A stretch of DNA of 64,000 bases, from NCBI GenBank assembly GCA_963845695.1, contig CAWJTQ010000002.1, positions 1,084,546-1,148,545 of the forward strand, given 5' to 3'. The notes below the pieces were generated by a model. The model worked only from the letters and a program-made list of their open reading frames with translations, was not told the origin of the DNA and did no database searches. The number at the start of each line of letters is the position of its first letter. The stretch's first letter is position 1. This stretch comes from an uncultured Isosphaeraceae bacterium (GTDB taxonomy: Bacteria > Planctomycetota > Planctomycetia > Isosphaerales > Isosphaeraceae). This document shows positions 55,309 through 56,182 of the stretch, one piece after another. A program made the position numbers and the translations under genes.

Positions 55309-55375
55309 GTAGGGTGCTCTGTGAGCACCGATCCGGCGGACTTTGCCGAATTCGGTGCTCACAGAGCACCCTACA
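55309..55375. repeat. Double-palindrome element, family 2 copy 1 (TAGGGTGCTCTGTGAGCACCG-24 nt-CGGTGCTCACAGAGCACCCTA)
   Basis: Direct reading. Same architecture as family 1 but different sequence. Confidence 0.75.
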
Positions 55376-55500
55376 AGACCGCCATTGAGGCTTCCGGGAC
55401 AGACTCGAAGAGTCGCTAATCCAGCGGGTACAGCCAACACGCGGACTCAGATCCAGTCCCGTTGGGTTAGCGCTTCGCCGCGGATTCGGGAGGAAGGGGT

Positions 55501-56076
55501 ATGTCGGTCCAGTCCGATTCGGGACGAAGGCGTCACTTGCTCTCGGCGCTGGTGCAGAACCGGCCCGGCGTGCTGGCGCACGTCTCGGGGATGTTCGCCT
55601 CGCGGGGATTCAACATCGAAAGCTTGGCGGTCGGAGAAACCGAAGACCCCAATCTCTCCCGGATCACCGTGGTCGTCATGGGAGACGACCGGCACCTTGA
55701 GCAGGTGCGCAAGCAGCTCGAGAAGATCGTGACCGTCGTGAAAGTACACGACATTTCGAGCGAAGACTACGTCGAGCGGGACTTGATGCTGATCAAGATT
55801 CAAGCACCCGCGGGACTCCGTCCCGAGATTCAGGCCCTGATCCAGATCTTCCGTGGCCGGATCGTCAACGTCAGCCCGGACCAGTTGATGATCGAAATCT
55901 CGGGACAGGAAAAGAAGATCGAGGCATTCATCGAGCAGGTCCGGCCGTACGGCATCCGCGAAGTCGCCCGCACGGGACGGATCGCTCTGGTGCGCGGGGA
56001 CCGGCGCTCGAAGGGGAGCGTGGTGACGACTCCGACCTGCCCACGGGGGTTGCCGTCGACGCGGAGCCCGAGGTGA
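55501..56076 (+). CDS. ilvH: Acetolactate synthase small (regulatory) subunit
   Basis: ACT domain LSALVQNRPGVLAHVSGMFASRGFNIESLAVG. AGGAAGG 7 nt before the ATG. Confidence 0.85.
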   Translation: MSVQSDSGRRRHLLSALVQNRPGVLAHVSGMFASRGFNIESLAVGETEDPNLSRITVVVMGDDRHLEQVRKQLEKIVTVVKVHDISSEDYVERDLMLIKIQAPAGLRPEIQALIQIFRGRIVNVSPDQLMIEISGQEKKIEAFIEQVRPYGIREVARTGRIALVRGDRRSKGSVVTTPTCPRGLPSTRSPR

Positions 56077-56118
56077 CGGGACATTCCGAGCTCTGAGAAG
56101 ATGTCTCGAACGGATTTC

Positions 56119-56182
56119 GTAGGGTGCTCTGTGAGCACCGTTTCTCAGGGCTCTGGCACTTCCGGTGCTCACAGAGCACCCG
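56119..56182. repeat. Double-palindrome element, family 2 copy 2 (between ilvH and ilvC)
   Basis: TAGGGTGCTCTGTGAGCACCG...CGGTGCTCACAGAGCACCCGA. Confidence 0.75.

Follow-up and report, generated by a model that had tools for sequence, protein, structure and literature searches.

In a 64,000-nt stretch of DNA from an uncultured Isosphaeraceae bacterium (contig CAWJTQ010000002.1; the window, meaning the whole stretch analysed), two double palindromes bracket ilvH, which encodes the small subunit of acetolactate synthase. The gene lies on the plus strand (55501-56076) and its product has ALS_ss_C and ACT domains. It is preceded by a gene for a DUF4340 protein that ends at 55278, upstream of the first double palindrome, and followed on the same strand by ilvC, the gene for ketol-acid reductoisomerase (56206-57211, KARI_N and KARI_C domains, with a frameshift near 56575-56590). 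Element 1 is located 126 bp upstream of ilvH and element 2 occupies the gap between ilvH and ilvC; the presence of both, the 7-bp stem and 3-nt loop of each arm and the distance of 126 bp are as given in a preliminary description of this DNA. The two elements are very probably copies of a dispersed repeat: repetitive extragenic palindromes (REPs) carrying a GTAG tag and arranged as head-out inverted dimers, of the type known as REPINs (REP doublets forming hairpins). They are referred to here as family 2, family 1 being a second such repeat in the window.

Both elements share the same plan, in which an arm of the form GT(A/C)GG-GTGCTC-TGT-GAGCAC-CG is followed by a 22-nt spacer and then by an inverted copy of the arm, giving a dimer of about 66 nt. 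The spacer, put at 24 nt in the preliminary description, is actually 22 nt long in both elements. The two dimers occupy 55309-55374 and 56119-56184, but element 1 is really longer and, with its outer repeats, runs from 55297 to 55406. The left REP arm of element 1 (GTAGGGTGCTCTGTGAGCACCG, 55309-55330, plus strand) consists of the GTAG head followed by GGTGCTC-TGT-GAGCACC-G, and the right arm (55353-55374, minus strand) is its inverted copy with the head facing outward; a repeat finder reports the arms as 23 nt long and 100% complementary (I23). Between them lies a spacer with no strand assigned (ATCCGGCGGACTTTGCCGAATT, 55331-55352, 22 nt) that contains a small internal hairpin and is kept in about 20 aligned copies from other genomes. 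In element 2, the left arm (56119-56140, plus strand) and the right arm (56163-56184, minus strand) are reported as 24 nt long and 96% complementary (I24). The head of the right arm is GTCGG in place of GTAGG, so that one of the family-2 arms in the window bears the GTCG variant of the tag. The spacer of element 2 (TTTCTCAGGGCTCTGGCACTTC, 56141-56162, no strand) has the same 22-nt length as that of element 1 and an unrelated sequence. Within the window, the 17-mer GGTGCTCTGTGAGCACC gives 8 strand-hits at 4 sites when up to 3 mismatches are allowed, compared with an expectation of 0.31 from shuffled sequence; a total of 8 was not reached in any of 100 shuffles. As single-stranded DNA, a single arm is predicted to fold into a 7-bp stem with a 3-nt loop, leaving GTAG unpaired. 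As RNA, the entire unit is predicted to fold best as a single long hairpin, at -62.2 kcal/mol (z -11.5) for element 1 and -49.6 kcal/mol (z -6.8) for element 2.

The arm is widely dispersed in related genomes. One genome per species was scanned with the 19-nt arm core GGGTGCTCTGTGAGCACCG, common to all four arms of the window. Among the matches listed, at least 98 eight-kb blocks contain the core. They represent 12 genomes, all of them metagenome-assembled genomes of Planctomycetota, with Isosphaeraceae/Isosphaerales bins and several long-read bins of the Microflora Danica (MFD) set among them; at least 29 blocks come from one genome, at least 20 from another and at least 17 from another. Copy number and the cognate transposase described below were established in these relatives, and the window itself holds two family-2 dimers in 64 kb. 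At up to 4 mismatches the 98 blocks contain 212 arms, 164 of which pair up as 82 head-out dimers; the commonest spacer length is 21-22 nt. At the three positions immediately 5' of the core, 132 of 139 arms have G, 129 have T and 132 have A, respectively, showing that the GTAG tag is conserved. The repeat is also strongly extragenic: according to a crude gene caller based on GC content at the third codon position (GC3), 58% of bases but only 15 of the 212 arms are situated 90 nt or more within a predicted gene. Conservation reaches 94% in the arms as opposed to 60% in the spacers, although the arm figure is inflated because the loci were chosen by an exact match to the core. Some dimer flanks resemble tRNA D-arms (TAGAGCGC...); a link with tRNAs was rejected, as ARAGORN finds no tRNA in 20 loci, Rfam finds nothing in 15 loci and the motif is not enriched (11 of 214 flanks; background 0.065 per 90 nt).

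In three of these genomes the same arm flanks, in inverted orientation, a gene for a REP-associated tyrosine transposase (RAYT). An open reading frame (ORF) of 189 aa in locus L009 (6964-7533) matches NF047646, the NCBIfam equivalog for REP-associated tyrosine transposases, at 179.7 bits against a cutoff of 80, and aligns over most of its length with the Escherichia coli protein TnpA_REP (PDB 4ER8, E 2.2e-40). The alignment keeps LPEH(L/M)H and Y-x-NPVKHG, which can be read as the HUH and catalytic-tyrosine motifs; a Pfam search of this RAYT gave no match. To the left of the gene there are three arms in one orientation with a 32-nt period, and to the right nine inverted arms with a 30-nt period. 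Such an arrangement, termed a REPtron, is found in three genomes (L009, the L001/L058 junction and L072); in the two besides L009, RAYT homologues 72% and 66% identical to that of L009 have the same arm in the same head-out flanking. Homologues are common in Planctomycetota (3975 matches at E <= 1e-10), and some are named REP-associated tyrosine transposase at NCBI. Three further RAYT lineages, 59-63% identical, are flanked by arms that again consist of GTAG, a 7-bp stem and a 3-nt loop, with the stems GGTGGGC, GGTCCGC and GGGACGC. Since each RAYT lineage is accompanied by a different stem, the REP sequence co-varies with the RAYT lineage, which is the signature of REP-RAYT (REPtron) systems (PMC3733652, PMC3116915). 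Family 2 can be described as a new, or at least newly documented, GTAG REP-dimer family with RAYT association in an Isosphaerales-like planctomycete. The RAYT cassettes also show direct duplications. In L009 (6812-7837), the cassette including both arm arrays has a 17-bp direct repeat (ATCACCAAGGAGTAACC) on either side, located at the 3' end of a gene, and in L104 (1300-2400) about 90 bp of the end of the upstream PfkB gene are repeated after the cassette, adjoining a run of N; the latter may be a scaffolding artefact. Duplications of this kind are not expected of a Y1 transposase.

The ilv locus itself was compared with five syntenic loci (L090, L099, L100, L101 and L102). The gene order ABC transporter - DUF4340 - ilvH - ilvC - MotA/ExbB is kept in all five; the genes of L090 have 78-88% nucleotide identity to those of the window, and the DUF4340 protein of the L099-L102 genomes is 66-77% identical. 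In all five, the ilvH-ilvC gap lacks a family-2 element. The DUF4340-ilvH gap contains a dimer only in L100, at a distance from the stop codon other than that in the window, and L090 has family-2 dimers in two further gaps of this locus. The gaps of the relatives hold other palindromic repeats, namely a third family, one family-1 arm and inverted arrays of short tandem repeats. The intergenic gaps of a single conserved locus are turned over by at least 3-4 palindromic repeat families among relatives. This comparison bears directly on the proposal, made as one of two readings in the preliminary description, that an ilv-specific DNA-binding regulator uses the four palindromes as pairs of operator half-sites. 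Palindromic symmetry and positions upstream of both ilvH and ilvC are features that such operators would have. The proposal is refuted because copies are numerous beside genes unrelated to ilv (at least 98 blocks in 12 genomes) and because the elements are missing from the orthologous ilv gaps (0 of 5 between ilvH and ilvC; 1 of 5 upstream of ilvH, at another offset). The arm, moreover, flanks transposase genes. A role as ilv operators is consequently extremely improbable.

A role in the transcript deserves somewhat more weight. The two hairpins could be selected RNA devices of the ilv operon, the intercistronic one setting the ilvH:ilvC ratio through stabilisation or processing and the upstream one insulating ilvH from the DUF4340 transcript. 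Their predicted RNA folds are very stable (-62 and -50 kcal/mol), the conserved ribosome-binding site of ilvC (GAGGA, 56194-56198) is separated from the right arm of element 2 by 9 nt, and roles for REPs in transcription termination and mRNA stabilisation are a long-standing hypothesis (PMC3733652). However, no terminator-like site combining a GC-rich hairpin with a U-tract is present in 55100-56400, and the promoter/terminator scan found no sigma-70-like promoter near the window copies. Rfam gives no family above the gathering threshold for the elements, the only matches passing in the window being two tRNAs elsewhere; the sub-threshold matches for the elements are generic hairpins resembling microRNA precursors. 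In the predicted hairpin of element 2, the ribosome-binding site and the AUG of ilvC stay unpaired, so translational sequestration is unlikely and the suggestion that the intercistronic copy controls ilvC translation is not supported. This hairpin might stabilise the ilvH mRNA that precedes it or lead to processing by nucleases. The same positions are conserved in none of the five syntenic relatives and identical elements stand beside unrelated genes everywhere. Any effect of the elements on ilvH or ilvC at the RNA level would be a by-product and not the reason for their existence, and selection as RNA devices appears very unlikely.

Element 1 is a member of a longer form of the repeat. Over 105 nt of its full extent (55297-55406, including the outer inverted repeats) it is 94% identical to copies elsewhere, and an alignment of 20 copies defines a unit of about 120 nt in which the 66-nt dimer with its spacer lies within the outer repeats GAGTCTGTCyCGGAAG ... 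CTTCCGrGACAGACTC. In the window copy, the left outer inverted repeat (55297-55308, plus strand) lacks 10 nt of the consensus GAGTCTGTCyCGGAAGGTCTTT, and TAA (55294-55296) stands before it. The right outer segment (55375-55406, plus strand) extends the hairpin and ends in the outer inverted repeat CTTCCGGGACAGACTC; as single-stranded DNA, 55290-55415 is predicted to form a nested hairpin of -44.7 kcal/mol (z -11). For element 2, there is a weak candidate for a diverged left outer arm (GAAGATGTCTCGAACGGATTTC, 56097-56118, plus strand), which matches the frame consensus at 14 of 22 positions and is directly preceded by TGA (56094-56096); no right outer arm of element 2 was found. In the related blocks, 28 full-length copies of about 120 nt have the outer repeats. 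TNA is present on both sides of 13 copies, and in 11 of these the trinucleotide is identical (TGA, TTA, TCA or TAA; binomial P = 1.1e-5), only one of the 13 being the inverted complement. At least 12 other frame copies have flanking trinucleotides that do not match, and element 1 in the window has TAA on one side and GAA on the other. The same frame, of the same 120-nt length, also surrounds unrelated cores in L067 (7706-7825) and L026 (119-240). The L067 core is GGGGGC-GTCA-GCCCCC, with matching TCA flanks, and the L026 core is GGTGGGT. Among the framed copies, the 120-nt element is present four times in the bin MFD04463.bin.2.167 (L016, 3247-3456; L022; L027; L075) with identical flanks of about 45 nt on both sides, and the resulting duplicated unit of about 210 nt has the 7-nt direct repeat GTACTTA at its borders. 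The idea that these four copies sit in a larger insertion sequence was rejected, as the unit they share is no longer than about 210 nt.

The matching TNA flanks may represent a 3-bp target-site duplication. IS200/IS605-type Y1 (HUH) transposition is not known to make a target duplication, and for this reason the flanks point to a DDE-type mechanism for the ~120-nt subfamily. Bacterial miniature inverted-repeat transposable elements (MITEs) that have terminal inverted repeats and target-site duplications are mobilised by DDE transposases; they include Correia/NEMIS elements and IS5-family derivatives with TNA duplications. Some IS5-family groups produce TNA duplications and have ends that start with GAG. 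It may be, then, that the copies, or at least element 1, were placed by a DDE transposase through their outer inverted repeats, the repeat being a MITE with a 3-bp TNA duplication and the REP dimer its cargo or core. The terminal repeats of the 28 copies, including element 1 with its partly deleted left end, the 11 of 13 identical trinucleotides and the recurrence of one frame around unrelated cores would all agree with this. Several observations do not. No autonomous element with these ends occurs in the related DNA: a search of about 780 kb (the 98 loci) revealed neither a transposase-sized unit nor a full-size insertion sequence with frame ends. Furthermore, 48 of 84 dimers have no frame yet keep near-perfect arms and the 21-22-nt spacing, their spacers having diverged in sequence while remaining fixed in length, and the arms beside the RAYT genes are also frameless. 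Element 2 has no right outer arm, the flanks of element 1 differ (TAA, GAA), and REP dimers inside longer 'target' palindromes have been noted before in some species (Di Nocera, De Gregorio and Rocco 2013, PMC3733652). Placement by a DDE transposase is therefore rather unlikely as an account of the window copies.

Family-2, GGTGGGT and GGGGGC-GTCA-GCCCCC cores all occur within the same 120-nt frame. The ~120-nt form could be a chimeric non-autonomous element, made up of a fixed outer frame with a TNA duplication and interchangeable REP dimer cores of the RAYT type. This proposal is put forward tentatively and its correctness is doubtful. If true, either a single miniature element is subject to two unrelated transposition machineries, DDE and HUH/Y1, or a resident MITE is specifically targeted at its centre by RAYT-type dimers. 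The TNA-flanked composite frame is the sole part that might be new and, if confirmed, it would bear on how REP dimers spread.

The reading of both elements as GTAG-tagged REP dimers suggests how they came to lie around ilvH. The family-2 repeat is probably mobile and driven by the RAYT, with a transposition chemistry that would, by homology, follow that of TnpA_REP. On the model of the systems known from E. coli and Pseudomonas, the RAYT, a transposase of the HUH/Y1 type that works on single strands, would recognise GTAG and the adjoining hairpin on single-stranded DNA and would cut and rejoin beside the GTAG-hairpin. Dimers could in this way be copied or moved in trans into tolerated sites, i.e., between genes. 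The bracketing of ilvH would be incidental, the gaps being colonised by different palindromic families at different places in each relative. Once transcribed, the copies would each give rise to a highly stable hairpin lacking a U-tract, which could slow 3' exonucleases or serve as a nuclease target.

Several points weigh against this reading. The 64-kb window contains no RAYT gene (tblastn). The cognate RAYT and the copy number were both demonstrated in relatives, and the closest homologue of a window protein (DUF4340) is 77% identical. Within family 2 there are no compensated stem changes, with 1471 pairs unchanged, 8 G-U pairs and 26 broken pairs; support for the structure comes solely from the comparison between families. 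A clean empty site was found for neither window copy in the comparison with L090 and L099, because the window has diverged too far from either of them in its intergenic DNA; only the left boundary of element 1 aligns with L099 (...GTAGGCyTAA, then insertion). Finally, the outer repeats of the ~120-nt subfamily are flanked by matching TNA, which for that subfamily indicates a mechanism of the DDE type.

Other repeats occur in the window. Family 1 is represented by four head-out dimers (5084-5142, 7955-8012, 30588-30646 and 41091-41149) with the arm GT(A/C)GG-TCAGGCT-TTCC-AGCCTGA-C and 11-nt spacers. Its plan is that of family 2, with a GTAG-type head, a 7-bp stem, a short loop and an inverted pair, and the preliminary description was right that the two share one architecture; of its two readings, that of family 2 as a second REP-like family is supported. 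Both families fit the class of GTAG-tagged REPs. The family-1 copy at 41091 starts 4 nt from a tRNA gene (40999-41086, minus strand), and the 98 related blocks contain only 6 family-1 arms. A third palindromic repeat (GGGAGGGCGAGGCTCCGTCCGAGCC ... GGCTCGCACGGAGGCTCGCCCTCCC), this one without a GTAG head, is found at 45710-45774; it is also present in L099 (7480-7733) and L101 (6540-6870), where it fills the ilvH-ilvC or the DUF4340-ilvH gap. In the intergenic gap at 53436-53605, TTTCCGTGTTCGG occurs twice and is followed by GAACCGAACACCGAACAC, forming inverted arrays of short tandem repeats. The gaps of L099-L102 hold similar inverted tandem arrays, with units such as CAGTGGT, TACTGCC and GGTCATT. 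These arrays, which bracket 60-150 nt, are another kind of element than REP dimers. The stretch from 24000 to 27000 is highly repetitive, with periods of 66, 48/18 and 21 nt (families D1-D3 and D6), and is probably a repeat-rich coding region.

Several conserved genes near the two elements appear broken. ilvC is split into two ORFs (56206-56766 and 56744-57211) by the frameshift near 56575-56590. At the C-terminus of ilvH (55990-56096), the conserved GHSEL-stop (56079-56096) is out of frame. Similarly, the gene for an ABC2/ABC_transp_aux protein of about 950 aa (52023-53435) consists of three ORFs in the window and of one ORF in all relatives. This suggests indel errors of long-read assembly rather than pseudogenes.

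For annotation, the hairpins around ilvH are best masked as dispersed repeats and not recorded as ilv regulatory sites. More broadly, family 2 adds a clear REP-RAYT pairing for Isosphaerales-like Planctomycetota, in which several REP families share the same plan of GTAG and a 7-bp stem, each with its own RAYT. These provide material on the co-evolution of REP and RAYT specificity outside Proteobacteria.

Among known systems, bacterial MITEs resemble the ~120-nt subfamily in its terminal inverted repeats of about 16 nt and matching TNA flanks. They differ in that, here, no autonomous partner was found in the related DNA searched, the core is a REP dimer of the RAYT type and 48 of 84 dimers have no such ends. 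The REPIN-RAYT systems of Pseudomonas and Enterobacteria (Bertels and Rainey 2011, PMC3116915) are also comparable: there too, two inverted REPs make up one hairpin-forming unit and the REP sequence co-varies with the RAYT lineage. As in the E. coli REPtron (TnpA_REP, PDB 4ER8) and in REPIN-RAYT systems, a small RAYT gene has the same REPs on both sides. Unlike those systems, family 2 belongs to another phylum (Planctomycetota, Isosphaerales-like), and the RAYT of L009 is flanked by tandem arm arrays (three at a 32-nt and nine at a 30-nt period) with a 17-bp direct repeat outside them; the mobility of family 2 is presumed. There is likewise a close likeness to the GTAG REPs and their head-out (HH) dimers; such REPs, dimers and REPtrons are documented, Planctomycetes included (PMC3733652). 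The same survey reports that several GTAG-REP families can coexist in one genome. In both cases there is an unpaired GTAG/GTMG tag at one end, a stem of 6-9 bp and a loop of 2-3 nt. The REPs form mostly head-out dimers, 20-100 bp apart and extragenic, and coexisting families, a presence in Planctomycetes and the nesting of some dimers in longer palindromes are likewise held in common. The family-2 stem, GGTGCTC/GAGCACC, is likened to these REPs by its plan. In contrast to the GTAG REPs as described there, the outer palindrome of the ~120-nt form has matching TNA flanks and is common to different cores.

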